Source: an uncultured virus (IMG/VR IMGVR_UViG_3300025296_001443)
Lineage: Duplodnaviria > Heunggongvirae > Uroviricota > Caudoviricetes
Direction: 5' to 3' (one strand)
IMG/VR virus record: IMGVR_UViG_3300025296_001443
Length of the DNA: 64,000 nucleotides
In this document: in pieces, positions 20,534-56,652 of the stretch
Layout of the letters: the number at the start of each line of letters is the position of its first letter
Numbering within the stretch: the stretch's first letter is position 1
Notes under the pieces: model-generated
The model's input: the letters and a program-made list of their open reading frames with translations, nothing else
The model's database searches: none
What the model was told of the DNA's origin: nothing
Position numbers and translations under genes: made by a program

Positions 20534-21193
20534 TTATTGTCCTCCAGTTAATGTGTTTGTACCAAGAGGGCTACCAGGAAACTTATAATCTGTTCTTCTT
20601 CTTCTACGAGCTTCATTATTTATAGTAGCTACTTGTTCTTTATACAAATTTTTGTATATAGTATAGTCTTCCATGTTCTTTGTAAAGAGATTTGCTTCAG
20701 CTAAACAAGCATAAGTTAATGTACTTGGTATATTTTCAGTATACCAATTTGTAGTATTAGTATTAGATAAAGGATTAATTTTACCTTGATATCCTAATTT
20801 AACTGTATATGCTTGATCTGGAGTGGGAGCTAAATAAACTCGATCATCATCAAAATTAGAAAAATATTTAGGTTGGCCTTGAATTGATATATCAGGCCAA
20901 TATTCTTGACAATATGCTAAAGTTTTCATTTCTAAATAACTTACATTAGAACCTACAGTTATTGATAAATAATTAAATAACATAGGTTCAATAGCAGTAG
21001 GAAGGTTTACCATTCTATCTCCCGCTATTGTAGTTGTAGTTACATTTTCATTAAATCCAATAGGGTCTATATCTCTTGATAAACTTTCAAAAGCATTTTG
21101 AATAAAATTTCCTACTTGATTAGTAAAATCAGTTCCTGTATTTTCAGCCCAAACTTTAATATCATTTTGAAGACTGCTGTATGTCATTGCCAT
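20534..21193 (-). CDS. Head-tail adaptor/tail tubular-like protein
   Basis: GQPKYF, LAPTPD, LTYACLAEA pattern of adaptor proteins. Confidence 0.55.
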   Translation of the reverse strand: MAMTYSSLQNDIKVWAENTGTDFTNQVGNFIQNAFESLSRDIDPIGFNENVTTTTIAGDRMVNLPTAIEPMLFNYLSITVGSNVSYLEMKTLAYCQEYWPDISIQGQPKYFSNFDDDRVYLAPTPDQAYTVKLGYQGKINPLSNTNTTNWYTENIPSTLTYACLAEANLFTKNMEDYTIYKNLYKEQVATINNEARRRRRTDYKFPGSPLGTNTLTGGQ

Positions 21194-28214: not shown

Positions 28215-28371
28215 TACTTCCTTTCACAAAAAAATCTAAGGTTGCTTCAAAATTTTTTTTTAATCCATTTGAAGCAATAGCAAATAAATGTGGTTTAACT
28301 TTTTTAATAGAAATTTTTTTATTTTCTAAAAATTTTTTAGCTTGTCTTATTTCGTCTGCTTTCGCTCCCAT
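28168..28371 (-). CDS. Hypothetical protein
   Basis: Coupled to the portal stop codon. Confidence 0.45.
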   Translation of the reverse strand: MGAKADEIRQAKKFLENKKISIKKVKPHLFAIASNGLKKNFEATLDFFVKGSNGTSTTSDQTKTKRS

Positions 28372-30686
28372 TATTTTCTTTTATCTTTTCTAGCAACTTT
28401 AGAAGCTGTCTCTACTATTTTAGCTTTAGTCTCAGCATCTTTTCTAGCCTCTTGTTTTTCACTTTGTTTTACACCTTGCATAAATCTTGCTTTTCTGATT
28501 TGAAGTTCTTCAGCTTTTAATTGAATGTTAGCTTGTTTTTCTTTATCTTCCATTTGTTGTTTTTGTTCTTCAGGAGAAGGAGGCATACTGCCCATTAACT
28601 GCTGTGCAGCTTGTGCAGCATTTGCTGCTATTCTATTTTCTTCTTCTATACTTATTTCTTTTGATGGCTCATTATCTAATTCTCTATTAAAATCTCCAGA
28701 AGAAATAGGATTACCTGGAGGAACTGATGCTTGCATTTGTTGTTGATATAAATATGCCATATGTTGACCTATATGAGCTAACATTGCTGGATATAATCTT
28801 TCTTTAGCTTCAGGATTTCCACCAAATCTAGGATCATTCATAAATTGAGAATGAACTTGCATATGAGCTTGATGATCTTGATCTTCAAATACTTGAATAG
28901 GCATAGTATTAAGTATAGCCATATTCTCTGATACTGGATCACGTCTAGGAGTATCTTCATCTTCTATTATTAAATCCATATAATCAGGAATACTTAAAGC
29001 TTGTAAAAATCTTCTTGTTGCTTCTTTTACATCTACTACATCAGGAGTTTCTCTTGCTAATTGTAAACCAGTTTGAGCTAAAGCTATTCTTTGAGCTTGA
29101 GAAAATATATTAGGATCAGATACAGGAACAACACTAATTGAAGCACTAAAATCTTTTCTTCTAATTTTTTTATTTTCACCTATTACTTCAAAAGAATATT
29201 CATCATCTAAATATTCTCCATTTAATTCATAAATTAATTTAAATTCTCTACCTTGAGCTTGATGTATTCTTTTATGAATAGCGGAAAATACTTTAGAACC
29301 TTGTTCTATTAAAGCAATAGTAGTTCCAACTGGACCTGATCCAGCTGAATCTCCAATCATTGCATCTGCAATAGAAGCAAACCGTCTCCCTGACTCAGTT
29401 AAAACTCCAAGTAATTGAAGTAATGTTGGTGATGGTTCTTTAAAGGGAAGAGGGATAAAAGATTTACGCAAGTCATCACCATATGCTTCTACTTCAACCC
29501 ATTCTCCAGGAGAGATAGTAATATCTCCTCCTTCTATTCTGGCTCCTTTAGCTCTAAAACCTCCATTAAGATTTGCAAAGGCAGCTGAATCTAGTAGTGC
29601 TCTTAAAGCACCAGTGCTTGCGTGTTGAAGTCCACCTATCATTTGTATAAGACCAAAGCCGTAAAAGCCCAAGCCAGGAAGATATTTATAATGAATAAAA
29701 TAAGTTCTTTTTCTTTTTAATGAATCTTCTTCTTTCCAGTTTCTTCTAATAGATAAAACTCTTTGTGATTCATAATCTATTGTTATAATATAAGGTAAAG
29801 CTAATTCATCTTCATCTTCACCTAAATCTATATTGGTATGTACTTCTAAAAGAGTATGAATTTTACTAGCCATACTTGGTGTCATACCTTCTAATCTTTG
29901 TAAAGTTTGTTCAACCATATCTCCGCTAGTAGCACCAGTATTAGGATCAGATTTAGTTAATGGAATATCTTTATAATAACCTGAAATTTGATGTTTTCTT
30001 ATTTCAGTTCTTGTTAATTTCATTACTTGAGTATATCTATCAGCAGTTTCTAAATCTGTATTTTCCATAGAGATTACAAACTCTTCAGCGGGTACAAATT
30101 TAGAGCAAATTCTATCTAATGTATTATCAAAATATATTTTTTTAAAAGCACTTCCTGCAAGAGCTAAATAAAATAACATTTGATCTAGTTCATTAAAGTA
30201 ATCAGGGATTTCTTGAGTAACTTGAAAGTTCATAAAGTCTTGAACTCTTTGTGCTTGTTCTAATTTTTTATCTGTAGTTTTTCCAATGATTTGTGTTTTA
30301 ACAGGACCACCTGCCGGAAACATTTCTGCGATAGCACGAGCTTGAAACTGTGTTGCTGCTTCTGCAAGTAAAGGATGATGAACACCAGAAGCTCCTGGAA
30401 AAGGATCTTGTCTATCTTCAACTATTACTCCTAACATTCGTAGACCTTTAGAATATTGATCTTCCCAATTTTTCCTAGAACTTTTATCATCTTCATAAGC
30501 TCTAACTAAATCTTTTCCTACTTTAGCAACTTCTCTTTCGTCTAATTCTTCTGCTAAATTTGCATAATGATTTCTTTCAAAAACTTCTTCATCTTTTTCA
30601 GTTTGATCTTGATCTATATCAACTCTAACTTTTTCACCTTTATCATTAGTGAATTGTAATTTTTTTTTATCTAGTTCAACTTCCAT
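28371..30686 (-). CDS. Portal protein
   Basis: PFPGASGVHHPLLAEAATQFQA, GSAFKKIY, FLPGLGFYGFGL-like segment, PVGTTIALIE; 771 aa. Confidence 0.85.
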   Translation of the reverse strand: MEVELDKKKLQFTNDKGEKVRVDIDQDQTEKDEEVFERNHYANLAEELDEREVAKVGKDLVRAYEDDKSSRKNWEDQYSKGLRMLGVIVEDRQDPFPGASGVHHPLLAEAATQFQARAIAEMFPAGGPVKTQIIGKTTDKKLEQAQRVQDFMNFQVTQEIPDYFNELDQMLFYLALAGSAFKKIYFDNTLDRICSKFVPAEEFVISMENTDLETADRYTQVMKLTRTEIRKHQISGYYKDIPLTKSDPNTGATSGDMVEQTLQRLEGMTPSMASKIHTLLEVHTNIDLGEDEDELALPYIITIDYESQRVLSIRRNWKEEDSLKRKRTYFIHYKYLPGLGFYGFGLIQMIGGLQHASTGALRALLDSAAFANLNGGFRAKGARIEGGDITISPGEWVEVEAYGDDLRKSFIPLPFKEPSPTLLQLLGVLTESGRRFASIADAMIGDSAGSGPVGTTIALIEQGSKVFSAIHKRIHQAQGREFKLIYELNGEYLDDEYSFEVIGENKKIRRKDFSASISVVPVSDPNIFSQAQRIALAQTGLQLARETPDVVDVKEATRRFLQALSIPDYMDLIIEDEDTPRRDPVSENMAILNTMPIQVFEDQDHQAHMQVHSQFMNDPRFGGNPEAKERLYPAMLAHIGQHMAYLYQQQMQASVPPGNPISSGDFNRELDNEPSKEISIEEENRIAANAAQAAQQLMGSMPPSPEEQKQQMEDKEKQANIQLKAEELQIRKARFMQGVKQSEKQEARKDAETKAKIVETASKVARKDKRK

Positions 30687-34676: not shown

Positions 34677-35037
34677 TTAAGTCCTCCGTTGTACTTAATT
34701 TTTTATTTAGTATACCTTGAAAACATGACTGTGTAAAGGTCGGAAGTAACATTTCGCTAATAGGATTTTTATTATGGCCAGTAGACCATGATAGACAGGG
34801 AGTTCCCCTCTCATCCCATGCTACTAGAGCATATCCTTTAATATCCATTTTATCAGTTATCTTGATACATGCCTCATGAAAAGCATTAATTACTTGATCA
34901 TTTTGTGCTTTTTCGATTTGTTTAGGACTAGGAGGCTTTTGTTTAATAGGTCTATACCTATTAAGAGTAATAATGTTTGTTTTTATAGCTGCGTTTCCGT
35001 TGTTTCCTCTGTTCATAATCTTCATCTTCGGGATCAT
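34669..35037 (-). CDS. Hypothetical protein
   Basis: Overlaps the terL end; real start may be the later Met (MNRG). Confidence 0.45.
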   Translation of the reverse strand: MIPKMKIMNRGNNGNAAIKTNIITLNRYRPIKQKPPSPKQIEKAQNDQVINAFHEACIKITDKMDIKGYALVAWDERGTPCLSWSTGHNKNPISEMLLPTFTQSCFQGILNKKLSTTEDLNE

Positions 35038-36472
35038 CAGGATGAGCGACTAAAAAGCCATCACGAATACGCAATAAAGCTTGTACACACGTATCATGAA
35101 CATCATCAAATTTTCCATAAGGAAAAGCTGCTGATTCCTCTATGACACTTTTAGTCCAATCTTTATCTAAAGTAAACACTAATCCGCCTTCGAACATTGA
35201 AGCTACCGAGTGCGTTCTAGATACCTTATCTCTATCTGGACTATAAGTAATTACAGGAACTCCTGATCTTCTCATATCTTGTATTAAACTCTGGCCACTA
35301 GCTCTTTTTTCTATTAATACTTGATCAGGATACCATTTCTCATAAGCCTCTTGTGATCTTTTTCTTAAATCGGGATATTCTAATCTTTCTTTCCATGCGT
35401 CTAATAATAAACATGCAGCATAAGGTTTATTTTCTTTATCTCTTTCTGTATAAACTCCCCAGGTAGTACATGCAGAGAAGTCAGCACTATCTTTTGTAGA
35501 GAAGGCAGTATCATAAGATTGAAGAACATATGATAAAGTTGGAATTTTATCTTCTGGATATATATTCCACCAATCTCTTTTAATAATGGATCCTTCATCA
35601 CCTGAAGGTTGCTGTTGATAAAGAGCTGACCATACTCGTTCTCCTACTGTACTTTTAATTTTTTCTAAAGCTTCTTTAGGATAAGCTTCAGGCCATAACG
35701 CATTTCCTTTTGAATCAATAGCAGGTAAATCTAAAATTTTCCAATCTTCTTTACTTTCATTTAAAATATGACCAGCTAAATCATCTTGGTGCCATCTAGT
35801 TTGAATTATAATTATTTTTCCACCTGGCTGTAATCTAGTATAAGCGACTGACTTATACCATTCGATTAAATTTTTTCTTTGAACTTCTGACTCAGCGTCC
35901 TCTCTTCCTTTTATAGGGTCATCTATAATTAATAAATGCGCACCTCTACCTGTAATTGCTCCTCCTGCACCGACAGCTGAATAAGTTCCACCTTGCATTG
36001 TATGGAATCTTTTAACAGAAGTTGAATCTGCTCGAAGGCCCACGTGTGGAAATACATTATTAAAGTCTGGACTAATAATTTGATTACGAACCTTTCGTCC
36101 AAAGTCATCTGCTAGTTCTTGAGCATAAGTAGCCTGTATAACAAATTCATTAGGATTATTTCCTAGATACCAAGCTGGAAAGAACTCTGAGCATAACATT
36201 GACTTTCCATGTCTTGGTGGCATAAAAACTGCTAGTCTAGTTATTTCTCCTTTTTCTAAAAGTTCTAGATTTTGAGCAATTAATCTTATATGAGCAGGGT
36301 CCTTATATTGAGGATATATATGTGTAGCATATTGTAATAAAGTTTTACGAGCTTGAGAAGTAGATAGTATCTTATTTAAATGTTCTACTACTTCACCCGC
36401 ACGTTTATCTTTAGTTTTTTTGTATATCTGAATAGCTGACTTTAACTGTTCCTTGATCTGGAGTTCTTGCAT
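34961..36472 (-). CDS. terL: Terminase large subunit
   Basis: MPPRHGKS Walker A, LLIIDDP Walker B, QTRWHQDDL, YQQQP, SYDTA, IEKRASG, DDVHD nuclease residues. Confidence 0.95.
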   Translation of the reverse strand: MQELQIKEQLKSAIQIYKKTKDKRAGEVVEHLNKILSTSQARKTLLQYATHIYPQYKDPAHIRLIAQNLELLEKGEITRLAVFMPPRHGKSMLCSEFFPAWYLGNNPNEFVIQATYAQELADDFGRKVRNQIISPDFNNVFPHVGLRADSTSVKRFHTMQGGTYSAVGAGGAITGRGAHLLIIDDPIKGREDAESEVQRKNLIEWYKSVAYTRLQPGGKIIIIQTRWHQDDLAGHILNESKEDWKILDLPAIDSKGNALWPEAYPKEALEKIKSTVGERVWSALYQQQPSGDEGSIIKRDWWNIYPEDKIPTLSYVLQSYDTAFSTKDSADFSACTTWGVYTERDKENKPYAACLLLDAWKERLEYPDLRKRSQEAYEKWYPDQVLIEKRASGQSLIQDMRRSGVPVITYSPDRDKVSRTHSVASMFEGGLVFTLDKDWTKSVIEESAAFPYGKFDDVHDTCVQALLRIRDGFLVAHPDDPEDEDYEQRKQRKRSYKNKHYYS

Positions 36473-37262
36473 TTTGTAATCCTTGTCCTACTGCTCCTTT
36501 ATTTCTATAAGCTTCAAATCTATCTGCTAATTTAGTAAATGGCTCTACTTCTTTTCGTACAATTTTTTGCCAGTGTAAAGAAGATTGTCCTATCTTATCT
36601 AAATACCAAGCTAATTTAGAAGCATCAGCAAATCTTAAATTGATCATTTTTTGATGATGAAGGTCTCCTTCTTCTTTTGGGTTCCCTTCTTTATACACTC
36701 TACTTTTAAAAATTTCGTCATCATTATTTCCTGTAATGTCAGCTCTATCATGTAAAACTTTAACTCCTACATCTTGCATGATATCTAACATGTAAGCAAT
36801 CTCTGAGAGCCATGCATCATTTTGTCCATGTAAACTTAAATGATCTAGACATCTAAACCAATCCCAGGGTACAATAGGAAAGATACTGTAAGGATGACCA
36901 GTGGATTCCTCAATCCGGAGCAACTTAAACTGGCCATCAAACTTTCCTATCTCTGAATCCCAATCTTTAGTTTGCATTATAGCATCATCATTAAAGATCA
37001 TGATCCATGTACCTTGAGCGTATACAGAGAGGGCATTATTGTATCTGTGTAAATTTTCGTAACCTAATCTTTTAAACTTAATTACTGATCTAGCAGGATG
37101 TTTAATATCTTTTAAAAAATCTATACTTTCTTGATCATCTTCATCTACTCCATAAAGTAGTTGAATTTTACTAGGATCTTTAGCATTATCTAATAATGAT
37201 TCTGTACATTTCTTAATTAAAGGAATTCTTTTACGAGTAGGAAGTAAAACTGATATAGACAT
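36411..37262 (-). CDS. Glycosyltransferase family 2-like
   Basis: ISVLLPTRKR, YGVDEDD, IFNDD (DxD-like), NDAWL; overlaps the terL start. Confidence 0.75.
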   Translation of the reverse strand: MSISVLLPTRKRIPLIKKCTESLLDNAKDPSKIQLLYGVDEDDQESIDFLKDIKHPARSVIKFKRLGYENLHRYNNALSVYAQGTWIMIFNDDAIMQTKDWDSEIGKFDGQFKLLRIEESTGHPYSIFPIVPWDWFRCLDHLSLHGQNDAWLSEIAYMLDIMQDVGVKVLHDRADITGNNDDEIFKSRVYKEGNPKEEGDLHHQKMINLRFADASKLAWYLDKIGQSSLHWQKIVRKEVEPFTKLADRFEAYRNKGAVGQGLQNARTPDQGTVKVSYSDIQKN

Positions 37263-37381
37263 ACCTCACCTTATTTTGTTTATGATACTAAATAAACAAA
37301 AATATTTGCCCACCGTCCTCCCTGTTTCAAGTAAGTCTCCCTACCATTTAGTGAAACAACCCCTAAATTACTGAATAGAAA

Positions 37382-37594
37382 TTACTTTTTCTTTCGTAGT
37401 GAAACTATTAAAGTTCCGTAATATCCAGTAATAAGGTTCAGCGACAAAATTATTTTTTCTAATATCCAAGATATTAATAAACTTGCATATCTAAACAATT
37501 TTAGTATAAGCTGCACTATATAAATGGGAGTTAAAGTTACTCCCATTAACAATAAGCATATACTCACTGTTATAAAATCTAAAGTTTTTTCCAA
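37382..37594 (-). CDS. Hydrophobic small protein (uncertain)
   Basis: TM-like ORF with TTG start. Confidence 0.3.
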   Translation of the reverse strand: MEKTLDFITVSICLLLMGVTLTPIYIVQLILKLFRYASLLISWILEKIILSLNLITGYYGTLIVSLRKKK

Positions 37595-37612
37595 TAATTT
37601 AATTCGTTAAGT

Positions 37613-37801
37613 TTAAGAAAGAAAAATGATTAATATTATAAGAACAGCTAGTGCTATACCACAGCTCCAGCTAGTTGATTTACACACAGGACACATTCCG
37701 TCTTTCCATAATTTTGAAGAAAAAGGTATATATTGACACATATTAAAAGATTTAAGCCAAGACATTAAACTTTTAATTTTATTTGTTATTTTTAAAATCA
37801 T
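37613..37801 (-). CDS. Small membrane protein (start revised to MILKITNK)
   Basis: AAGGAG precedes the ATG at 37801; CPVC motif and C-terminal TM. Confidence 0.45.
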   Translation of the reverse strand: MILKITNKIKSLMSWLKSFNMCQYIPFSSKLWKDGMCPVCKSTSWSCGIALAVLIILIIFLS

Positions 37802-38061
37802 AAGATACTCCTTATATTTTTTCAGTAGGCTACTATTTAAAAAGCAAAATGTACAGCTATAAAATTTATATACATTTAATTCATTCATCACTCTTTCTCT
37901 ATCTTTCTCCCTAGAAAGAGTCAAATCGCTTTTTAAACTTAATACGATTTTTTTTAATTAAACTTAATACGATTTTTAAATACTATCTATTTAAGATTAG
38001 CTTTTTATTTTAAGATTAGTTTTTTTTAATTAGTCTTTAAGAAAAAAAAAAAGAATAAAAA

Positions 38062-38095
38062 AAAACGCGTACTTAAATTAATAAGTACGCGTTTT
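38062..38095 (-). terminator. Rho-independent terminator after the desert gene
   Basis: AAAACGCGTACTTA-6 nt-TAAGTACGCGTTTT inverted repeat followed on the minus strand by long T runs. Confidence 0.75.
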
Positions 38096-38111
38096 AATTC
38101 GAATAAATAAC

Positions 38112-38504
38112 TTATAAGTTATTTATTCTAGTTTCGAAAAATTTAATATTCTCTAATATTTCGTTAGATACTTTATTAGTTTTTACGTATTCTTTATTAG
38201 AATTTAATAAGTCTAAATATAGATTTTTTTTATTTTTATCTAAATAGCTATTTAAATCGATTAATAAATTAACTTTTTTAAAACGATTATTTTTCGTAGT
38301 ATCGTACTCTATATCGATCTTACGATAATCGTTATTAAAAGCTTTCTCTATATTAGTCGAAAATTTAGATTTTTCGTAAATAAAAAAAGACTTCGTTTTA
38401 TCTCTTTTATTATTAAATAATCTAAATAAAATTTTCTTATTAGCGTATTCTCTAAAAGATAACGCGATTTTATTTTCGATTATTTTATTTTCTATTTTTT
38501 TCGT
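38112..38504 (-). CDS. Unannotated 130-codon paralogue of 39024-39404 with probable ACG start
   Basis: Hand translation (T/M)KKIENKIIENKIALSFREYANKKILFRLFNNKRDKTKSFFIYEK...AFNNDYRKIDIEYDTT...ETRINNL-stop; ungapped similarity to 39024-39404; no ATG/GTG/TTG in the frame. Confidence 0.85.
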   Translation of the reverse strand, partial: TKKIENKIIENKIALSFREYANKKILFRLFNNKRDKTKSFFIYEKSKFSTNIEKAFNNDYRKIDIEYDTTKNNRFKKVNLLIDLNSYLDKNKKNLYLDLLNSNKEYVKTNKVSNEILENIKFFETRINNL

Positions 38505-38693
38505 ATAGTCTATCTCTCTCGCTTTCTAATTATTCTTAAAATATTTAAAAAAATATTTCTTTTTAAATAATTAATAGAATATTAGTTTATTTTTAAAGAA
38601 ATTAAAAGAAAAAAAACGTTTAATTCTCGTATAAGTAGAAACTTTTTTATACTCGTTTCGTTCTCGTTTCGTTCTTATTATTCTCGTTTTAGT

Positions 38694-38768
38694 TTAAATC
38701 GTAATATAAGAATAAAGTAATATTAAAAATATCGTAAATATTAAATTTCTAAAATAGTATAAAAGCAT
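38694..38768 (-). CDS. 24-aa hydrophobic micro-protein
   Basis: MLLYYFRNLIFTIFLILLYSYITI after GAAAGTAAAA; its ATG is the only TG/CA between 37924 and 38856. Confidence 0.5.
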   Translation of the reverse strand: MLLYYFRNLIFTIFLILLYSYITI

Positions 38769-38895
38769 TTTTTACTTTCGTTAATTAATTTAATTAATTT
38801 ATTTATAATTATTTTTTTATACTAAAAAACGTTTTTATTATTTTATCGTAAGAAATTGTTTAGAGCTTTTTCTAGTAATTTTTTTTTATTTTTCT

Positions 38896-38990
38896 TGATC
38901 CCTGCTGATCCCTCTTGCGCCTTTCCTCCTTGATCACCGTTGATCAAGCACACTTCAACAAGCAACTAGCATCAAGCCACATTTCAACAA
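38896..38990. repeat. Repeat block 1: phased TGATC and TTCAACAAG motifs
   Basis: TGATC at 38896, 38906, 38931, 38941; TTCAACAAG twice. Confidence 0.8.
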
Positions 38991-39011
38991 GGGAGCGATT
39001 TCTCGCTCCCT
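38990..39011 (-). terminator. Hairpin/terminator after 39024-39404
   Basis: AGGGAGCGA-GAAA-TCGCTCCCT on the minus strand, weak U-tract. Confidence 0.6.
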
Positions 39012-39023
39012 AATTTAGGATTA

Positions 39024-39404
39024 TTATAACTGTGATATAATTTGCTCGAAGTATTTTTGATTGTCTATAATACTTTGAGGTACTTTATTTTTTTTGATAA
39101 ACTCTCTGTTAGATGAAAGCATTTCCTCATAGAGCTTCTTTTTAGATTTATTGATATACTGAGGCACATCTACTAACACATTAGCTTTTTTAAATCTAAG
39201 GTTAGCGGTTGTATCGTACTCGATATCCACTTTTCTATAGTCATTATCGAAGGCTTGCTTGATAGTTGAACTAAGTCTAGCTTTTTCATAAATGTTGAAA
39301 GACTTAGATTTATTTCTTTTAGGATTGAACAATCTAAAAAGAACTCTTTTGTCTGCTATTCCTCTAAACGATAGAGGTATTTTGTTTTCTACTAACTTTG
39401 TCAT
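39024..39404 (-). CDS. Basic hypothetical protein with NPKR...YE...DIEYD motif
   Basis: ORF track; own promoter-like element and terminator; paralogue at 38112-38504. Confidence 0.75.
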   Translation of the reverse strand: MTKLVENKIPLSFRGIADKRVLFRLFNPKRNKSKSFNIYEKARLSSTIKQAFDNDYRKVDIEYDTTANLRFKKANVLVDVPQYINKSKKKLYEEMLSSNREFIKKNKVPQSIIDNQKYFEQIISQL

Positions 39405-39439
39405 ATATTTCTACTTTCTGTTTTAGTTAATATCTGTAC

Positions 39440-39470
39440 AGTATATATATTTTTCTACACAATTAAACAA
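39440..39470 (-). promoter_or_regulatory. Sigma70-like promoter (TTGTTT-17-TATATA)
   Basis: Same element recurs upstream of several early genes. Confidence 0.5.
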
Positions 39471-39505
39471 AATAATTATTATATTGTTGTTGATATATAT
39501 ACTCC

Positions 39506-39607
39506 TGATCCCTGCTGATCACTCTTGATCCTATAATCTTTTGATCCCTGCTGATCACTCGGGCTCAAGCACATTTCAACAAGCCAATTTCAACAGCCTT
39601 CAACAAG
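39506..39607. repeat. Repeat block 2: phased TGATC and TTCAACA motifs
   Basis: TGATC at 39506, 39516, 39526, 39542, 39552; TGATCCCTGCTGATC shared with block 1; TTCAACA at 39575, 39589, 39599. Confidence 0.8.
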
Positions 39608-39620
39608 GCCGGGTTGCTTG

Positions 39621-40070
39621 CTACTGAATGTTGTGGTCCTTTGCAATCTTGTCTAGGTATGAGGACATCTCATCAGCGTTCATAGCATCAAGTGTTGAGT
39701 GTTGTACTTCTTTCTTCTCAATCAAAAACCCTAATAACTGCGACTTCAATCTTATCGCATTGACTGCGGCTGAATACTGCTTCTTGCCACAAGCATCAGC
39801 ATACACTTTGTCAAGCTTTTCAACCTCTTGTGACACAGACTCACTTGTCAAGCGCCTAGCATCAACCCTCAATCTATCGATGTACTGGATAAGTTTATCC
39901 TTCTTTAAGTTGCGGGCAGCTTGTACGTGAGCTGAAGTTTCAGAATAACCTGCGTCAACAGCAGCGTTTCTCTTACCTTTTCCACTAGCTATACCCTCAC
40001 AGAACTTCTTTTCCATGTGGGTTAAGGTTGCCTCATTTGTTTGATGTAATTGGTTAATAGTTATCGCCAT
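39621..40070 (-). CDS. terS: Terminase small subunit
   Basis: LT..EKKFC, AAVDAGYSE.SA.V.A.RNLK HTH, AAVNAIRLK.QLLG. Confidence 0.8.
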   Translation of the reverse strand: MAITINQLHQTNEATLTHMEKKFCEGIASGKGKRNAAVDAGYSETSAHVQAARNLKKDKLIQYIDRLRVDARRLTSESVSQEVEKLDKVYADACGKKQYSAAVNAIRLKSQLLGFLIEKKEVQHSTLDAMNADEMSSYLDKIAKDHNIQ

Positions 40071-51532: not shown

Positions 51533-53374
51533 TTATTTTGCGTTACCCCAATTGTCTCCTTTCTCGACATCCACCTTAAGAGGCACTTTCAACTTTACGC
51601 AAGTTTTCATGATTTGTAAAGCTTCTTCAAAACATTTTTGTTTATTCCAAGGAATTGAAAAATCTAATTCATCGTGAATAGTTAATTTTAAATCAATCTC
51701 ATCTAATAAACCTGCTTCATATATTTTTATCATTGCAGATTTTGTAATATCTGCTGATGAACCTTGAATTAAAGCATTTAATGCAGTATGAGTATAAGCT
51801 CTTTTAAGTTCTTGTTTAGGATAATGGGAATAGGCTTCTGATAAAGAATAGGCTCTTTCTCCCCAACTATCTCTAGGTTCCCATAAATCAAATCTTCTTT
51901 TTCTTCCTAATAAAGTTTTAATGTAACCTCTACTCCCTGCTATATGCGATACTTGTCTTGATAGTTCTCTAACAAAAGGTACTCTACTATGATATTGATT
52001 AAATAATTCATAAGCTTGATCTTGTTCTAATCCTAATTGTGCTGCTAATTTTTTATTTCCCATACCATAAAATAATCCTAAATTAATAGTCTTGGCTTGC
52101 TTTCTTTCTATACCTGCCATATTAGCTACCATTTGATGAAAGTCTGTTTTATCATTTCTACAAAATTCTTTTTGGACTTGTAAAGCACTCTTCATATCTT
52201 TAAGACAAGCATAATGTATTAATACTCTAGGTTCTTGTTGAGAATAATCAGCACAATGCCATTCTGAATCTTCTTCAGGTATAAATAAACTTCTGATCAT
52301 CGGACCAAGTTCAGGGTCTCTAGCTGGTACTTGTTGAAGATTAGGATATTGAGAACTAAATCTTCCTGTAACTGTACCCATTGGATTAAAACTACAATGT
52401 ATACGACCATTAACAGATTTATCAATAATCATATTTTTAATAAATGTATTTCGTATCTTGTCTAATTTACGAATATTTAAAATACTTTGACTAACATCGT
52501 CCACTTGAGTTTCCAACCAAGCTGCAGTGAAAGATGGAGTACCTTTTGCGGTGTAGTTATATTTAATGTTATTTTTATCATATGCTTCCTTTAAGGAGGC
52601 GTTTGCCCATACATTAACTATGGTTCCTCCTAAAGTATTTAGTCGTGATTGCATATGAATTTGTTTTTTTTCTAATTCGTTATATAATTTATGTGCTTTA
52701 TCAACATCAACTCTTACTCCTTTTTTTCTCATATGAAATAGAACAGGTATAAGTCTTGATTCAAATTTAATTATATCTTCAACACCTTCTCTCTTTATTC
52801 TTTCTTGTTGTTTTTGATATATCTGTAAAGTAAGTAAAGCATCTTCTTTAGCATATTCACTTACTTCATTAGCATGTAATCTCCATAAATTTTCTTTTAC
52901 TTTAGCACGTTTACCAAACTTATATAAGACAGCTTGTTCGAGTTCAACTTCGTATTTAGATTTTCTTAAATAAAACTTTGCTAAAGAGTTTAATGAATAC
53001 TTTAATTTATTTTCATCAAGTAGATGTTCTATGGAAAGTACATCTAAAATCTCGTGACTACGAGTAAGGGTAAGTCGCTTATCCAGTGAATAAAGCCACT
53101 CTACGTCATACATTGCGTTAGCAAATATAAGCTTTTTCTTCTTTGAGTAAATATATAATAAAAAACTAATTACTTTTTCTTTATTTAAATTTCCACCGCC
53201 TTGATGTTTAATTGGAAAATATTCATTATATCCACTATCAGTTGCAATAGAAATACTTGCTATAAAACCATCTTTTCTAAAACCACCTGGTCCCATTGTT
53301 TTAAGATTAGGATCACAGGTCTCTGTATCTATTGCTATTAAATTTGCTTCATCTATTTTATTTACATTAAACAT
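51533..53374 (-). CDS. polA: DNA polymerase family A (3'-5' exo + pol; Leu at the 762-equivalent)
   Basis: IDTET, TGRFSSQYPNLQQVP, DYSQQEPR, AKTINLGLFYGMG, NALIQGSSAD, TIHDEL. Confidence 0.95.
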   Translation of the reverse strand: MFNVNKIDEANLIAIDTETCDPNLKTMGPGGFRKDGFIASISIATDSGYNEYFPIKHQGGGNLNKEKVISFLLYIYSKKKKLIFANAMYDVEWLYSLDKRLTLTRSHEILDVLSIEHLLDENKLKYSLNSLAKFYLRKSKYEVELEQAVLYKFGKRAKVKENLWRLHANEVSEYAKEDALLTLQIYQKQQERIKREGVEDIIKFESRLIPVLFHMRKKGVRVDVDKAHKLYNELEKKQIHMQSRLNTLGGTIVNVWANASLKEAYDKNNIKYNYTAKGTPSFTAAWLETQVDDVSQSILNIRKLDKIRNTFIKNMIIDKSVNGRIHCSFNPMGTVTGRFSSQYPNLQQVPARDPELGPMIRSLFIPEEDSEWHCADYSQQEPRVLIHYACLKDMKSALQVQKEFCRNDKTDFHQMVANMAGIERKQAKTINLGLFYGMGNKKLAAQLGLEQDQAYELFNQYHSRVPFVRELSRQVSHIAGSRGYIKTLLGRKRRFDLWEPRDSWGERAYSLSEAYSHYPKQELKRAYTHTALNALIQGSSADITKSAMIKIYEAGLLDEIDLKLTIHDELDFSIPWNKQKCFEEALQIMKTCVKLKVPLKVDVEKGDNWGNAK

Positions 53375-53838
53375 TAATTTAATTTTCCTAAAATAAAATT
53401 AATATTTATATAAGCCCAATCTCTATCTGTCATACACCATAATCTTTCAGCATCTTTATGAATATACTTTTCTCCAAATACAATATTTTTAGCTGAAGTA
53501 TTTAAAAGTAATTTAACACAATGAATACAAGGACTCACTGTAAGATAAACAGTATGAATATCATACACATCTTTACATTGAAGTAATGCGTTTTGCTCAG
53601 CATGTATTGCTTCGCATTTATCTAAATCTTTTCCACTTGTGGAATTTGCTCCTTTACAAGGATTATCTAAACAATGAGAAAATCCACTAGGATTTCCATT
53701 ATATCCAGTTGCTAATACATGATTTTTTTTATTTACTAAAATACAACCAACTTTTCTTCTGACACAAGTTCCTCTTTCTGAGACTAATAAAGCCATTCTT
53801 AAAAAATAAAAATCAGCTGGTTGTCTATAATTAGCCAT
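53374..53838 (-). CDS. dCMP deaminase
   Basis: C.RRKVGC, TGYNG, HAEQNA, SPCIHC. Confidence 0.92.
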   Translation of the reverse strand: MANYRQPADFYFLRMALLVSERGTCVRRKVGCILVNKKNHVLATGYNGNPSGFSHCLDNPCKGANSTSGKDLDKCEAIHAEQNALLQCKDVYDIHTVYLTVSPCIHCVKLLLNTSAKNIVFGEKYIHKDAERLWCMTDRDWAYININFILGKLN

Positions 53839-54664
53839 ATATTAAATAATCTAATCTTTCTGAAAGTAATCCATTAGGTCTTAATTCGTTACCTGTTACA
53901 TCTGCCATTTCCCATAAAATATCAATAAATTTAGTAGGAGTTTTTTTATACTTTTCAATAAGATTATTTAAATTAAAATCTTTATCATCATAATTACTTT
54001 TAAATATATTATCTAATTTACTAAAATCATTTTCATAGACATGTCTACTTCCTGCTTGTATATTTAATTCACCTAATTTACATTTTAATCCACGTAAATT
54101 TAACCAACAAATTATATAAAAAGAGATTGCACTAAAGTTAAAAGTATCATAAGGAGTACCTAACCAGCCGTCATTACTTCTCATACTAGCAATCGTATGT
54201 AACCATAACTCATCACTTGCTTCTCTTAATAAAAATTGTAAAGATAAAGTACAAGGAATATCTTTACTTGATCTAGGATTCTCTCTCCATATATTTATAA
54301 CAGCTTGTCTACTATCATTATCTTTTATTAAAGTATCAATTATATATGAAGTTTGAGTAATGATTTTAGGACCATAAGCTCCAAAAAAAGTTACACCATC
54401 ATCACTAAATCTTTTAACTCCATCAACATATTTAGATACACTTGCAACATCATTTCTACCGCTTAACATCCATGCTGCTTCACCAAACATAAAACTATAA
54501 GATAATTTTCTTTCAGGTATAGTTATAATAGGGTCTTCCATACCTATTTTAAAAGAGTGATTAATTTTTTCTTTTATATTTAATCCTCTAGGTTTACACA
54601 TAAACTCAGAACGATTATAAATATCCTCTAACATTTTTTTATATCTAATATTGGTTTCTTTCAT
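53831..54664 (-). CDS. Thymidylate synthase homologue, predicted dCMP hydroxymethylase/methylase
   Basis: AYGP, DSRQAV, DIPCT catalytic Cys, MRSNDGWLGTPYD with Asp at the dUMP(Asn)/dCMP(Asp) specificity position, HVYE. Confidence 0.8.
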   Translation of the reverse strand: MKETNIRYKKMLEDIYNRSEFMCKPRGLNIKEKINHSFKIGMEDPIITIPERKLSYSFMFGEAAWMLSGRNDVASVSKYVDGVKRFSDDGVTFFGAYGPKIITQTSYIIDTLIKDNDSRQAVINIWRENPRSSKDIPCTLSLQFLLREASDELWLHTIASMRSNDGWLGTPYDTFNFSAISFYIICWLNLRGLKCKLGELNIQAGSRHVYENDFSKLDNIFKSNYDDKDFNLNNLIEKYKKTPTKFIDILWEMADVTGNELRPNGLLSERLDYLIYG

Positions 54665-54666
54665 AT

Positions 54667-54873
54667 TTATTTTTGATCCTTTTCATCTAAATAAGATTTA
54701 ACTAATATTTTTATTAATTTAGACATTGAAAATCCTCTTTTCATACAATGTTTTTTTAATCTAGCGTGTAGTTCAGCTCCTAAACATAAACCCATAACTC
54801 CATATCTTCTTGTTGGACTTATAAGTTTTGGTTTTTTTGGCTCTACCAGTTTATCTATTTCATTTATATTCAT
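54667..54873 (-). CDS. Ribbon-helix-helix DNA-binding protein
   Basis: Short beta strand then ELHARLKKHC..RG.SMSKLIK.LV..YL. Confidence 0.55.
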   Translation of the reverse strand: MNINEIDKLVEPKKPKLISPTRRYGVMGLCLGAELHARLKKHCMKRGFSMSKLIKILVKSYLDEKDQK

Positions 54874-55062
54874 TTAATATTTCACTTTAATTTTATTAGT
54901 ATCTATCCATTTTGCTAAATTATTTCCTTTTTTATTTTTATACATACATAAAACATTCATTTTAGGAAATTTAAGAACTAAAGATTGTAACATTTTTTTA
55001 AAAGACATTGCCTCTATCGTTTCTTCTTTATCTTTAGTTTTAATTTTATAAGTGTATCGCAT
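54874..55062 (-). CDS. Hypothetical protein
   Basis: EAMSFKK, YKNKKGN; coupled ORF. Confidence 0.45.
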   Translation of the reverse strand: MRYTYKIKTKDKEETIEAMSFKKMLQSLVLKFPKMNVLCMYKNKKGNNLAKWIDTNKIKVKY

Positions 55063-55618
55063 AATTTTTCATAATTTTATTAGTGAATTCATCTAATTTG
55101 TATCCATCTTTAAACATATCATATCTCATAAAATCTTTTCTGTCACGCAGAGGCGATAGCGTGGATAAAAAATTACTTCGATCAGGTTTACCGAACCAAT
55201 GATAGTAATAATAATCTACTACTTTATCAATATTATGATATTCTTCATGTCTTAATTCTCTATTAATTCTATGATTTTCTTTTACTCTTTCAATATCTTC
55301 TGGAATACACCATACATAAAAAGTTTTTTGATCTTTTAATCTATTATATAAAAACCTAGGATTATAACTAGGTCCATTTCTATAAATATAAGCATAGCAT
55401 TGTTCACTTGGCCAATGTCTATCTAATAAAACTAATTTTCCTTCTAATTTTTTTCTAATAGCATATCTAGCACTAGCTGTATGCCACAATTTCATATTCT
55501 TATGAACTCTTAAATGCATATAATAAGAGTTTTTATATTTCTTTTTTATATGATTAATTAAAGTAGTTTTACCTACACCATCTGGTCCATCAAAAATTAT
55601 TATTCCATTAGTAGACAT
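55046..55618 (-). CDS. P-loop nucleotide monophosphate kinase (thymidylate kinase-like)
   Basis: IIFDGPDGVGKTT, LLDRHWPSE..Y. Confidence 0.85.
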   Translation of the reverse strand: MSTNGIIIFDGPDGVGKTTLINHIKKKYKNSYYMHLRVHKNMKLWHTASARYAIRKKLEGKLVLLDRHWPSEQCYAYIYRNGPSYNPRFLYNRLKDQKTFYVWCIPEDIERVKENHRINRELRHEEYHNIDKVVDYYYYHWFGKPDRSNFLSTLSPLRDRKDFMRYDMFKDGYKLDEFTNKIMKNYAIHL

Positions 55619-56652
55619 TTAAAAAATTCTTTCGTTCTTTCTTTCGACCAAAATTTATTTCTTAAAATTTCAGCTTGATTATTAAATACTTTAATTAACT
55701 CATCACTGCTACAATTTTCTAACTTTTCAAGATCATGATAAAAACCTAATACTTTAGTTTCTTCAGGATGACCATAAATAATACAACCAGCATCTAATGC
55801 CATTTTATATCTTACTCTCCACCAACCACTCCCTTGTAAAGTATGATAATGTGGTGGACTTATTATTCCCCATATTTTACAGTACTCGGCAAATAATTCA
55901 TGTTCTTTTAATCTTATCTGTCCTTCTTTTATATTTCCATAAGTTTTCACAGGCCAATTAAAATATTGATGTTTTAACCAGTTTTGTTTACTTACTAAAC
56001 TAGCACAAGCCCATTCTTTTTTTCTTTCGTGAGATTGACTTGAAAATAAATTTATTAAATCAGGATGATCTAAATGTAAATCACAATAAATTGAAGGATC
56101 CCAATTTATAATTTCTTTAGCCCTCATTCCTAAAGTTTCATAATTACCACCATCATATGCTGGAATTAAAAGTTTATAAGGCCATTCTTCAAAAGCGAAT
56201 GTATCTACAAAATCTTCTATTTCTTTTTTATAAGCTTGAGCCTCATCCCAATTAACTTTTCCTACTGGATTTCCTGCTTTACTTAATTTTTTCCATATTC
56301 TCCAATGACCTCTACTAAAAGTTCCAAAACCACTTACTGAATCTTTAGTTTGCCAATCATCTATTGATACAATAGCATCGGGTCTTTTAATTAAAGTATA
56401 TGCTGCACCATACCAGAAACGTGCTGATAAACTATTAGGACCAAATACAAATACAAAAACTTTATCATATTGAGAAACATTTTCTCCCGGGACGATTGCT
56501 TTTTGAGTTACATCATGCCCTAAATCTTTTAAAACTTTTGGTAATATTCTAGCTGATGTAGATATATTTAATGTACTTCTTGCTGTACCTACAGCTAATG
56601 CATTAAAGCCTGTTATTAATATTTTCATTTTGTTCTTTCTCTTCCTCAACAA
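55600..56652 (-). CDS. GT-B glycosyltransferase, T4 beta-glucosyltransferase-like (putative DNA glycosyltransferase)
   Basis: Likely start MKILITG; L..LGHDV, YDKVFV, SIDDW acidic motif, GWWRVRY..ALDAGC; lies inside the nucleotide-modification cluster. Confidence 0.6.
   Translation of the reverse strand: MLRKRKNKMKILITGFNALAVGTARSTLNISTSARILPKVLKDLGHDVTQKAIVPGENVSQYDKVFVFVFGPNSLSARFWYGAAYTLIKRPDAIVSIDDWQTKDSVSGFGTFSRGHWRIWKKLSKAGNPVGKVNWDEAQAYKKEIEDFVDTFAFEEWPYKLLIPAYDGGNYETLGMRAKEIINWDPSIYCDLHLDHPDLINLFSSQSHERKKEWACASLVSKQNWLKHQYFNWPVKTYGNIKEGQIRLKEHELFAEYCKIWGIISPPHYHTLQGSGWWRVRYKMALDAGCIIYGHPEETKVLGFYHDLEKLENCSSDELIKVFNNQAEILRNKFWSKERTKEFFKCLLME

Follow-up and report, generated by a model that had tools for sequence, protein, structure and literature searches.

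Why should a working gene and its control DNA be written without CA, TG, CC and GG? This question is raised by a segment located between terS (39621-40070) and terL (34961-36472), directly downstream of terS, in the genome of an uncultured phage. The window, i.e. the whole stretch of DNA that was analysed, comprises 64,000 nt, and all of its genes lie on a single strand. All occurrences of the four dinucleotides, referred to as forbidden in the following, were mapped, and the segment was delimited as follows:

37923..38895, no strand: CA/TG/CC/GG-free island with two exceptions only, CA at 38766 and TG at 38857

The first-pass annotation had reported none of the four dinucleotides between 37924 and 38765, which was confirmed by the mapping. 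They are absent throughout 37923-38766; a gap of 844 bp separates CA at 37922, the last one ahead of the island, from CA at 38766, and the second-longest gap in the 64-kb window measures 60 bp. The single exception noted at first pass up to 38856, an ATG, corresponds to CAT at 38766-38768 and thus to a minus-strand ATG. After it, forbidden dinucleotides resume with TG at 38857 and then TG at 38896. They are dense right outside both borders (at 37882-37922 before the island, at 38896 and 38900 after it), so that the edges are indeed sharp. The borders are abrupt and not graded as would be expected of a deaminase footprint, and they coincide with the same functional borders in all relatives.

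The segment 37923-38857 (935 nt; A341 C89 G75 T430) contains one forbidden dinucleotide, compared with a mean of 81.2 (sd 6.3, minimum 58) in 2000 mononucleotide shuffles of the same segment. The motif count is far below the prediction from composition; AT-richness is therefore no explanation, as the first-pass annotation had argued, and an origin from composition only is ruled out by the shuffles together with the relatives described below. Apart from the single CA, the base after C is T (49 times) or G (39 times), the base before G is always A or C, and TCG and TCT are the commonest contexts of C. CG was counted 39 times with 7.1 expected, an observed/expected ratio of 5.5 against 0.48 in the rest of the window, where CA, TG, CC and GG occur at 0.98-1.10 of expectation; the earlier remark that CG is frequent here and scarce elsewhere was thus correct. 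In the bulk of the window, 400 nt contain 36.9 ± 9.6 CA/CC and 24.8 ± 8.2 TG/GG. Since the minima in 400-nt windows outside the island are 14 and 6, respectively, the island is unique within the window. Its GC content is 0.16-0.20 compared with ~0.30 for the genome, and the cumulative GC skew has no turning point at the island. An assembly artefact, raised at first pass, is ruled out by read runs and by diverged copies in public contigs: 14 marine DNA runs, of which 6 may be the source sample, contain 50% or more of the words sampled from 37300-39500, and diverged copies of the island occur in more than 100 public viral contigs. Contigs breaking at the island (physical ends or low coverage) were considered and rejected, as contig ends show no clear excess there over the adjoining stretches.

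The island is a sharply bounded, conserved minus-strand unit with a small ORF, gene X copy B, a hairpin terminator and two unique 15-nt boxes, which agrees with the earlier proposal of a complete transcription unit between terS and terL. From the upstream edge onwards, its elements are:

38840..38851, minus strand: conserved TTACGATAAAAT at the upstream edge of the island, sole exact copy in the window
38694..38768, minus strand: small ORF of 24 codons for a hydrophobic peptide, MLLYYFRNLIFTIFLILLYSYITI, whose ATG is the exception at 38766-38768
38652..38675, minus strand: tandem motif GAACGAAACGAG, two copies, in the leader that separates the small ORF from copy B (AT-rich clade)
38514..38530, minus strand: purine stretch AGAAAGCGAGAGAG, written without GG and resembling a ribosome-binding site
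38112..38513, minus strand: gene X copy B, 133 codons plus TAA, no forbidden dinucleotide
38062..38095, minus strand: intrinsic terminator hairpin of copy B with a 14-pair stem, then a T run
37990..38025, minus strand: second direct-repeat pair, 17 nt, core CTAATCTTAAA on the minus strand (family D10)
37933..37977, minus strand: exact 20-nt direct repeat, two copies 25 bp apart, core TCGTATTAAGTTTAA (family D7)

Copy B sits in a 137-codon stop-free frame and starts with ATA (38513-38511), which is aligned with the ATG of relatives; in L008, L016 and L057 a stop codon lies right before the aligned start. The encoded protein is built from just 13 amino acids (K N I L F E D S Y T R V A). All the relatives aligned carry a conserved GAAAG..GAGA 5-10 nt ahead of the start, and the purine stretch is a putative ribosome-binding site. 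In most relatives TTACGNTAAAAT immediately follows the last forbidden dinucleotide, and TTACGATAAAAT is possibly a -10 region or promoter. A scan of the region for sigma-70-like promoter consensus sequences yielded 10 matches and no excess over shuffles (11.6 ± 3.3). A small hydrophobic ORF is found at the matching position in relatives, including G007 (MDLILYILLIAFIAITTTQF), and the GAACGAAACGAG motif is conserved across the AT-rich clade, with the variant GAACAAAACGAG in some relatives. For the terminator of copy B, 0.3 terminators were expected in shuffles, and the terminator stems of relatives comprise at least six different sequences with zero forbidden dinucleotides. RNA folding of the copy B message is unremarkable apart from the terminator (z = -2.34), and an Rfam scan of 37500-39700 gave nothing near any gathering score. 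The TCGTATTAAGTTTAA repeats, two exact copies with no further match in the window at fewer than 3 mismatches, are kept in relatives and even in the distant clade (G007), and the CTAATCTTAAA pair was found in close relatives. Approximately 140 bp past the terminator, including the two boxes, are also clean on both strands, which suggests that the exclusion continues beyond the transcript end at the hairpin.

Directly upstream of the island, a second copy of gene X and two repeat arrays were identified:

39503..39595, no strand: upstream TGATC repeat array, preceding copy A (families D1, D2, D5)
39024..39404, minus strand: gene X copy A, normally composed paralog of 126 aa with ATG start
38990-39011: terminator of copy A's own
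38893..38991, no strand: TGATC(A/C)/GGATCA repeat array, rich in forbidden dinucleotides (families D1, D2, D5)

Copies A and B share 58% identity over 124 aa (E 1e-52), and copy A contains 14 TG/GG and 29 CA/CC. As a normally composed paralog exists alongside, protein X itself does not require the composition of the island. Q, P and H positions have S, N, I, L, A or T as replacements, with one H/Y case, and the comparison with the unmutated paralog revealed no C-to-T/G-to-A spectrum with stop codons or decay. The two arrays are 75-79% identical; the one at 38893..38991 lies just outside the island and is present in all relatives. Metatranscriptome contigs from four runs cover the copy A region (39009-39413). 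From the same four runs, the island is represented by 20-51-nt AT-rich fragments only, mostly in contigs diverging from the window. Additionally, 37953 is linked to 38771 with 2,297 other letters between them in one X15 metatranscriptome contig.

Homologs of gene X form 1486 protein clusters, and the phage group is encountered very often in marine metagenomes. The residues G, P, H, Q, M, C and W do occur in distant members of the family. Searches of Pfam, PHROG and NCBIfam gave no match for the protein. A first AF2 model, built from depleted copies alone, was poor (pLDDT 69.6) and had no PDB match. The second model was confident (pLDDT 92.8) and had no match in the PDB (Foldseek), in a wide VIA search or in BFVD (best E 3.3, Z 3.9 and E 0.45, respectively); a search of the ESM Atlas with protein X returned unnamed viral clusters only. 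A comparison of the island with the DNA of 50,697 phage records gave nothing beyond chance matches in AT-rich sequence, which covered no more than 8% of the query. The nearest cultured relatives by TerL are pelagiphages with ~43% identity. Relatives were placed in two MAG bins, Candidatus Pelagibacter and Marinoscillum, which conflict with each other, composition-based binning being weak.

Among 73 distinct full-length coding sequences of the island gene (29,028 nt), 48 contain none of the four dinucleotides and are clean on both strands. The whole set contains 49 TG/GG and 147 CA/CC, where 2,718 and 1,819, respectively, would be expected at bulk rates. The median dS is 0.66 and dN/dS is 0.21 over 4,040 pairs, and purifying selection on the coding frame is seen in a set of 91 distinct sequences. 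The avoidance is kept by selection despite sequence divergence. Codon choice was counted over the 91 distinct segments that are fully depleted. Where the next base is G, two-fold NNY codons end in C without exception (744:0); where it is A or C, they end in T without exception (2,751:0); ahead of T, both occur (174 C, 889 T). The rule is absent from the normal paralog. As synonymous choice is set strictly by the next base, the exclusion works on dinucleotides and not on codons. The non-coding parts also obey, a median of ~130 bp past the stop codon being free of forbidden dinucleotides, and ATA replaces ATG as start codon in 14 of the 73 alleles, that of the window included. The exclusion thus spans codon borders as well as non-coding DNA, and therefore points to avoidance of an agent acting on DNA, in line with the first-pass annotation. 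CA/TG and CC/GG are mutual reverse complements, which fits duplex DNA as the target.

Both strands are not affected alike in every allele. In nine alleles, 9-26 CA/CC have returned to the sense strand alongside only 0-6 TG/GG, and these sense-biased alleles have at least four origins on the tree, two of them nested within fully depleted clades. The exclusion is therefore strand-graded and strongest for CA/CC of the template strand. Eleven alleles have 1-3 TG/GG and zero CA/CC; therefore, the grading is not absolute. In the distant clade the island is leaky, with 3-9 TG/GG and 3-4 CA/CC.

A candidate source of such an agent is encoded by the phage itself. The cluster of modification genes proposed at first pass was found as a nucleotide- and DNA-modification gene set, in which candidate genes for pre-replicative pyrimidine replacement are encoded together, their enzyme activities being predicted:

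53374-57049: ThyA homolog, dCMP deaminase, P-loop nucleotide kinase and MazG-like dNTP pyrophosphatase
57403-58461: C5 DNA methyltransferase (PF00145, E 1.6e-26)

A GT2 glycosyltransferase and a UDP-glucose dehydrogenase are encoded as well. The methyltransferase is conserved (87% in G003, 57% in G007 and G008); the ThyA homolog is divergent, its best equivalog score being 45.5 bits compared with a cut-off of 327. No Tet_JBP dioxygenase match was obtained among 81 ORFs at E <= 0.001; three 2OG-Fe(II) oxygenases belong to other Pfam families and are located at 13.6-16.8 kb, 40 kb from the methyltransferase. The 350-aa neighbour of the methyltransferase (55600-56652) has no family match. Island and modification genes were compared between clades, as suggested at first pass. 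GT2, UDP-glucose dehydrogenase and a NadE-like gene are confined to the clade whose island is absolute, a comparison of n = 2 clades. The distant clade with the leaky island shares the C5 methyltransferase as well as the ThyA-like, deaminase, kinase and MazG-like genes. A presence/absence link between methyltransferase and island was accordingly rejected. Moreover, the glycosyltransferase accompanies both fully and half-depleted alleles.

Chemistry aimed at single dinucleotide contexts is described for phages in the accessible parts of two sources. These document GpC-context hypermodification by C5-MT/5mYOX/GT pathways (bioRxiv 10.1101/2023.12.21.572611), and TG-context hypermodified thymidine in Pbunavirus F8 and 14-1 as well as GA/GG-context modified guanine in Pa5Oct (PMC12191111). 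Part of this toolkit appears to be encoded in the window (C5-MT, ThyA homolog, kinase, GT and sugar-nucleotide dehydrogenase), but none of the contexts given in those parts matches CA+CC / TG+GG exactly, and, unlike in the C5-MT/5mYOX/GT pathway as presented there, no TET/JBP-type dioxygenase was detected next to the methyltransferase in the window. A modification-free gene or island is not reported in the same parts of bioRxiv 10.1101/2023.12.21.572611 or PMC12191111.

With moderate confidence, we propose that the unit is kept free of the 5′-CM-3′/5′-KG-3′ target sites of an agent acting at the DNA level, probably the phage's own context-specific hypermodification. The protected unit would consist of the promoter region, the small peptide ORF, copy B, the terminator and the two unique boxes. 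Selection would hold it free of the degenerate site 5′-CM-3′ (CA, CC) and its complement 5′-KG-3′ (TG, GG), so that its DNA could be read accurately whatever a site-specific agent does to the remaining genome. The strongest exclusion, that of template CA/CC, would be expected if a changed, removed or nicked template base must be avoided, and in most alleles the protection would extend to both strands. The agent would most likely be the context-specific DNA hypermodification of the phage; an identical footprint would be left by a nuclease, glycosylase or deaminase of the host that shares this context. From this pattern we infer the agent, the modified base and the reason why protein X in particular would need protection. 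An agent acting on DNA is favoured by the absolute depletion, its conservation under divergence, the ATA starts, the strand grading and the paralog. The modification gene set of the phage and, by analogy, the documented dinucleotide-context chemistry of phages would speak for hypermodification, as does the confinement of GT2, UDP-glucose dehydrogenase and the NadE-like gene to the absolute-island clade (n = 2 clades). Against it count the methyltransferase, ThyA-like, deaminase, kinase and MazG-like genes shared with the leaky-island clade, the occurrence of the glycosyltransferase with fully and half-depleted alleles alike, and the lack of a TET/JBP-type dioxygenase match among the 81 ORFs. 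The cytosine modifications studied in most detail, those of T-even phages, are not known to stop host RNA polymerase, which counts against protection of the template. If the T or G of TG/GG, and not C, were the modified base, the asymmetric alleles would be keeping their non-template strand clean, and the argument from the template would no longer stand. More tentatively, the unit might be the first natural modification-proof or damage-proof gene, an essential gene with its terminator and boxes written in a dialect of 12 dinucleotides and 13 amino acids, with a template lacking 5′-CA and 5′-CC.

The message instead of the DNA may be what is protected. In this case, which is considered unlikely, copy B mRNA lacking UG/GG, and mostly CA/CC, would escape a dinucleotide-specific endoribonuclease, possibly a host or phage toxin-antitoxin, abortive-infection or CRISPR-accessory RNase, and X would still be made while other messages are destroyed. 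MazF spares messages lacking ACA, and HEPN RNases have dinucleotide preferences. As in MazF-escaping messages, a single gene free of a short nuclease target would be expressed while others are cut, and several observations agree with this: the exclusion of sense-strand TG/GG is the most persistent, the upstream edge lies at a conserved -10-like motif, the unit has its own terminator, the start codon is sacrificed in 14 of 73 alleles and the normal paralog exists as an unprotected version. However, an RNase predicts neither the equally clean antisense strand in 48 of 73 alleles nor a second forbidden pair that is the exact reverse complement of the first; both strands are clean over the ~140 bp past the terminator, where the two boxes lie, and with all genes on a single strand no antisense transcript is expected. 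MazF-type exclusions concern trinucleotides of the sense strand, whereas here both strands and the untranscribed flanks are clean in most alleles; an exclusion limited to the sense strand and the transcript was not found, nine alleles being sense-biased. It is quite improbable that localised hypermutation shaped the island, with a cytosine deaminase repeatedly converting C to T at CA/CC on one or both strands of a segment that is, for example, often single-stranded, until the gene is mutation-proof while purifying selection preserves the protein. The phage encodes a deaminase-fold protein, the island is AT-richer (GC 0.16-0.20 compared with ~0.30), TCG and TCT lead among the C contexts, CG/CA alternation is seen in the leader motif, and the ATG-to-ATA start (G-to-A) and the one aligned H-to-Y change (C-to-T) have the appropriate direction. 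Vertebrate CpG islands, fungal RIP and APOBEC footprints likewise are local dinucleotide anomalies that mirror an enzyme context, but they are statistical shifts from mutation pressure; here, the exclusion is absolute, razor-sharp at the same functional borders in all relatives, and affects a gene under purifying selection. Every CAA, CAG and TGG would become a stop codon, yet the frame is intact at dN/dS 0.21; the replacements of Q, P and H by S, N, I, L, A and T are not C-to-T products, and the 5.5-fold enrichment of CG indicates that surviving C is actively used. To our knowledge, DNA deaminases read the 5′ neighbour and not the 3′ neighbour, and the asymmetric alleles spare the strand that would be expected to be most exposed in transcription or lagging-strand synthesis.

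Two further explanations were considered. Loss of TG abolishes NTG starts and TTGACA/TGn promoter elements and loss of GG abolishes Shine-Dalgarno-like sites on one or both strands, so that only the intended product would be made; by sequence logic, TG is part of all canonical start codons and GG of all strong Shine-Dalgarno cores, the ribosome-binding stretch is written without GG, and both strands are affected in most alleles. This is regarded as very improbable, as it explains neither the surrender of the unit's own ATG in 14 of 73 alleles, nor the exclusion of seven amino acids and of CC/CA, which have no signal value, nor the restriction to a single unit in the genome, and sigma-70-like matches are not rarer than in shuffles (10 compared with 11.6 ± 3.3). 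That the composition is demanded by a structural or cis-acting element such as a packaging site or replication origin, the ORF being secondary, has hardly any probability. The position directly downstream of terS, the duplicated TGATC arrays as flanks, the unique paired boxes and other direct repeats inside and the strong AT-richness would suit such an element; but the coding frame is under purifying selection in 91 distinct sequences, the stable CG step is enriched, so that easy melting is not the driver, the exclusion tracks the whole gene including the strictly context-dependent codon choice, and no turning point of the cumulative GC skew is located here.

A close precedent for a target-free unit is the avoidance of restriction/modification sites in phages, in which a short motif is likewise far rarer than predicted and remains so as sequences diverge. 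Known avoidance of this kind concerns sites of 4-8 bp, is genome-wide and is statistical. The island differs in that the motif is a degenerate dinucleotide, CM/KG, which accounts for one in four of the dinucleotides, and in that the exclusion is absolute, limited to one transcription unit and strand-graded, at the price of a 13-amino-acid alphabet and a non-AUG start. T4, in which transcription and nucleases respond to cytosine chemistry, is proposed here as a second parallel, since its cytosine replacement with Alc and endonucleases II and IV likewise sets its own DNA apart through cytosine chemistry; of these enzymes, endonuclease IV favours a C that has A as its next base. Unlike T4, which replaces every C without an exempt island, the phage studied here gives no indication of full cytosine replacement. 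In a limited literature search, no earlier dinucleotide-free phage gene or modification-free region was found.

That one in four dinucleotides is banned from a working gene with its control regions, in hundreds of diverged copies, makes the island an unusually clean natural experiment. It demonstrates that 13 amino acids and a non-AUG start are sufficient for a folded protein maintained by purifying selection, and it suggests an agent with CM/KG dinucleotide context in an abundant marine phage group. The tandem normal and depleted paralogs and the alleles relaxed on one strand are ready-made experimental controls. With a host enzyme as the agent, the island would indicate a hitherto unknown defence. 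If instead the hypermodification of the phage is the agent, the island reveals the sequence context without chemistry and suggests that such modifications interfere with the reading of DNA, an open question for hypermodified phages. Should the unit indeed be modification-proof, it would read out the context of an undescribed DNA modification or anti-phage enzyme, and transcription of the remaining genome would depend on, or be gated by, such chemistry.

From 37923 to 38766 not a single CA, TG, CC or GG was found, the next of these forbidden dinucleotides being CA at 38766, TG at 38857 and TG at 38896. The listing of all forbidden positions confirmed the free stretch 37924-38765 reported by the first-pass annotation, and its single exception, an ATG, was found to be the start of a 24-codon ORF. 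The second-longest gap in the 64-kb window measures 60 bp. The 935 nt from 37923 to 38857 are composed of 341 A, 89 C, 75 G and 430 T; here C is followed by T 49 times and by G 39 times, with one CA as the sole exception, in agreement with the earlier statement that C occurs only as CG or CT and that CG is frequent (5.5 times expectation compared to 0.48 in the remaining window). AT-richness had been dismissed as an explanation, and the proposed shuffle check gave the same answer, since 81.2 ± 6.3 forbidden dinucleotides (minimum 58) were expected from 2000 mononucleotide shuffles and 1 was observed. Outside the island the four dinucleotides occur at 0.98-1.10 of expectation, and the minima in sliding 400-nt windows are 14 CA/CC and 6 TG/GG (means 36.9 and 24.8). 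At least half of the words sampled from 37300-39500 were found in 14 marine DNA runs, 6 of which are possibly the source sample. The island unit is organized as follows.

Anatomy of the island, listed 5′ to 3′ on the minus strand
38893-38991: TGATC/GGATCA repeat array preceding the island, rich in forbidden dinucleotides, with an A-tract right after it
38851-38840, minus: conserved TTACGATAAAAT, one exact copy in the window
38768-38694, minus: 24-codon hydrophobic ORF, its ATG the single exception named in the first-pass annotation
38675-38652, minus: GAACGAAACGAG, twice, in the leader
38530-38514, minus: purine-rich, ribosome-binding-like stretch without GG
38525-38112, minus: stop-free frame of 137 codons ending in TAA
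38095-38062, minus: hairpin of 14 pairs, then a T run
37933-37977: direct repeats, two exact 20-nt copies with core TCGTATTAAGTTTAA, unique in the window

The TCGTATTAAGTTTAA-core pair is one of two pairs of direct repeats at the end of the unit, and forbidden dinucleotides return at 37922, just ahead of the ribosome-binding site of the next gene.

A TerL-based scan of viral contigs yielded 79 loci. In 36 of 81 loci, terL is preceded upstream by an island measuring 300-970 bp and containing 0-5 forbidden dinucleotides, most of the others not extending to its position, and one and the same protein of about 130 aa is encoded in all 36. In most relatives the lone forbidden dinucleotide of this gene (gene X; the island gene is termed copy B) is its own ATG. 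At the position aligned with this ATG, ATA is present in the window (38511-38513, minus strand) and in the relatives L008/L009, L010, L016, L057 and L069, with a stop codon immediately before it in L008, L016 and L057. The alignments indicate that copy B is a genuine gene which starts at ATA, probably a natural AUA initiation codon. In a second scan the gene was detected in 121 of 162 loci, giving 73 distinct full-length coding sequences, of which 48 lack all four dinucleotides, 52 lack TG/GG, 57 lack CA/CC and 14 lack an ATG start. Together they hold 49 TG/GG and 147 CA/CC in 29,028 nt, compared to 2,718 and 1,819 expected at the genome's bulk sense-strand rates. The protein family is large, with 1486 clusters at 90% identity, but narrow, as 1.84 billion proteins contain only 41 representatives at 50% identity. 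Among its best 120 matches internal M, W, C and G are absent and six sequences carry one Q each.

Next to the island lies a normally composed paralog, copy A (39404-39024, minus strand; 126 aa, ATG start), which shares 58% identity with the island protein (E 1e-52), contains 14 TG/GG and 29 CA/CC and has its own hairpin (38990-39011). The TGATC array upstream of copy A (39503-39595) is 75-79% identical to that at 38893-38991, so the module, consisting of array and gene, is a tandem duplication. These arrays, directly downstream of terS, consist of TGATC(A/C)/GGATCA and CACATTTCAACAAG repeats and may serve as a packaging site or as binding sites for a regulator. Contigs of four marine metatranscriptome runs span exactly copy A (39009-39413), ending at both its ends, as would fit a separate transcript of about 400 nt, although contigs are no proof of it. 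Both copies occur together in 51 of 166 loci, which overlap on some contigs and are not independent genomes, and wherever a locus of the AT-rich clade has two copies, the downstream one is free of TG/GG and CA/CC. A distant clade with about 62% TerL identity and a GC of 0.35 carries the pair as well; its representatives are G008 and the complete 61-kb record G007. In this clade the composition of the upstream copy is ordinary (27 TG/GG, 30 CA/CC), and the downstream copy has only 4 TG/GG and 4 CA/CC in 381 nt and is accompanied by a rule-obeying terminator, shared boxes and a small hydrophobic ORF at the equivalent upstream position (L207, 13784-13846). Arrays of the TTGATC type flank the pair in G007. 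Family members more distant still make free use of G, P, H, Q, M, C and W, and these comparisons indicate that the odd composition is required by the DNA and not by protein X.

For 91 distinct fully depleted segments, a median dS of 0.66 and dN/dS of 0.21 were obtained (4,040 pairs); much divergence has hence accumulated while the sequences stayed clean. Synonymous choice in these segments is deterministic by the next base. For the two-fold NNY codons (N, D, Y, I, F), NNC and NNT were counted 744 and 0 times before G, 0 and 2,426 times before A, 0 and 325 times before C, and 174 and 889 times before T. The normal paralogs follow no such rule: NNC precedes A in 377 cases and NNT precedes G in 238. 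Terminator stems vary among relatives, with at least six kinds seen and forbidden steps in none, and the free zone reaches past the coding sequence, with a median of 111 bp ahead of the start codon and 130 bp behind the stop codon. By these patterns, the exclusion is due to selection on the dinucleotides themselves.

The two strands are not constrained equally. Nine alleles have normal sense-strand CA/CC (9-26) and just 0-6 TG/GG, for example the following.

Asymmetric alleles of gene X, sense-strand counts
L005: TG/GG 0, CA/CC 26
L047: TG/GG 1, CA/CC 16
L075: TG/GG 2, CA/CC 20
L124: TG/GG 3, CA/CC 10
L151: TG/GG 2, CA/CC 13
L223 (a similar case, in addition to the nine): TG/GG 1, CA/CC 11

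In a quick maximum-likelihood tree they have at least four origins, two of which are nested, with star support, within fully depleted clades. According to codon alignments TCA, ACA, CCN, CAA and NNC-A junctions were regained and TG/GG was not. The TerL of L005 is 97% identical to that of the window, so close relatives exchange alleles. Small leaks of 1-3 TG/GG without CA/CC were seen in 11 alleles; large relaxation is limited to CA/CC, and the persistent rule is therefore a sense strand without TG/GG, i.e. a template without CA/CC.

The confident model of protein X from a diverse alignment (pLDDT 92.8, pTM 0.86) shows a helical hairpin preceded by a small alpha/beta N-terminal part. Searches gave no match for the protein in Pfam, PHROGs or NCBIfam and none for the model in PDB or BFVD. 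Because the gene lies between terS and the structural operon, next to repeat arrays and to boxes that are both conserved and unique, our guess is a DNA-binding regulator or packaging accessory. In one database protein (P0130) the first ~73 residues of family X are joined to the C-terminal part of what, by its motifs, looks like an N4/N6 DNA methyltransferase; this may reflect chimeric assembly or, in some relative, a gene that truly lies next to it.

The window belongs to a marine tailed phage whose called genes all lie on the minus strand, and its nearest cultured relatives by TerL are pelagiphages (~43% identity).

Selected genes of the window
28371-30686 and 20534-21193, minus: SU10-like portal and adaptor
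34961-36472, minus: terL
36411-37262, minus: GT2 glycosyltransferase
39621-40070, minus: terS
49.5-58.5 kb, first part: NadE-like enzyme, UDP-glucose dehydrogenase, DNA polymerase A, dCMP deaminase
49.5-58.5 kb, further: divergent ThyA homolog (45 bits vs equivalog cut-off 327), P-loop kinase, MazG-like pyrophosphatase, C5 cytosine DNA methyltransferase
55600-56652, minus: 350-aa protein without Pfam/NCBIfam match, between kinase and MazG-like gene

The 350-aa protein is kept in both clades at 49-71% and is a candidate member of a nucleotide or DNA-modification pathway. Methyltransferase and nucleotide genes also occur in the distant clade with its leaky island, and the glycosyltransferase was found alongside both allele types, which limits the case for a hypermodification by the phage itself. 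A class-I methyltransferase and three 2OG-Fe(II) oxygenase genes adjoin the tail genes (13029-16759, minus strand) and are mostly missing from the distant clade. A 520-aa ORF (1793-3355, minus strand) has a TonB-dependent receptor plug domain (E 1.3e-18), unusual for a phage, and is 82% conserved in the relative G002. The island relatives L222, L223 and L224 are in MAG bins with conflicting labels (Candidatus Pelagibacter, Marinoscillum), probably due to binning of phage contigs.

The forbidden pairs, being reverse complements, reduce to a single degenerate site, 5′-CM-3′/5′-KG-3′. Together with the clean untranscribed flank and the clean terminator stems, this suggests that selection acts on duplex DNA, and the strand grading points to the template as the strand that matters most. 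We consider it an even chance that the island is kept without CM/KG target sites of a DNA-level agent, probably the phage's own hypermodification. A message made RNase-proof would fit the sense-strand bias and the sacrificed AUG, but is improbable given the reverse-complement symmetry and the clean DNA past the terminator. Local deaminase hypermutation, which fits the AT-richness and the change of ATG to ATA, is rather less probable, as it agrees neither with the sharp edges and the intact frame nor with the CG enrichment and the replacement residues. That the DNA is kept free of signals is very unlikely, since neither the gene's loss of its own ATG nor that of seven amino acids would be explained, and a purely structural element, contradicted by purifying selection and CG enrichment, is the least credible reading.

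An equal footprint would be expected from a host nuclease, glycosylase or deaminase with CM context. If the modified base were T or G instead of C, the clean strand in the asymmetric alleles would be the non-template strand. Target avoidance as a principle is already known; to our knowledge, an absolute, local, strand-graded ban that covers one in four dinucleotides, in a gene paired with a normal paralog, is without precedent. Full-text searching, as far as the retrieved text extends, returned no dinucleotide-free gene or modification-exempt island in a phage.

The phage's own hypermodification is favoured because a suitable gene set is encoded, because only the clade with the absolute island has GT2, UDP-glucose dehydrogenase and the NadE-like gene, and because some published phage modifications have dinucleotide contexts. 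Phage C5 methyltransferases with GpC specificity feed dioxygenase and glycosyltransferase steps (bioRxiv 10.1101/2023.12.21.572611), hypermodified thymidine in TG context is described for Pbunavirus F8 and 14-1 and modified G in GA and/or GG context for Pa5Oct (PMC12191111), and 5-hydroxycytosine made by ThyA homologs can be glycosylated on DNA (PMC13326640). The proposed agent, a context-specific hypermodification by the phage itself, would act on CM/KG sites elsewhere in the genome, and the site-free island would stay correctly readable whatever the agent does there.
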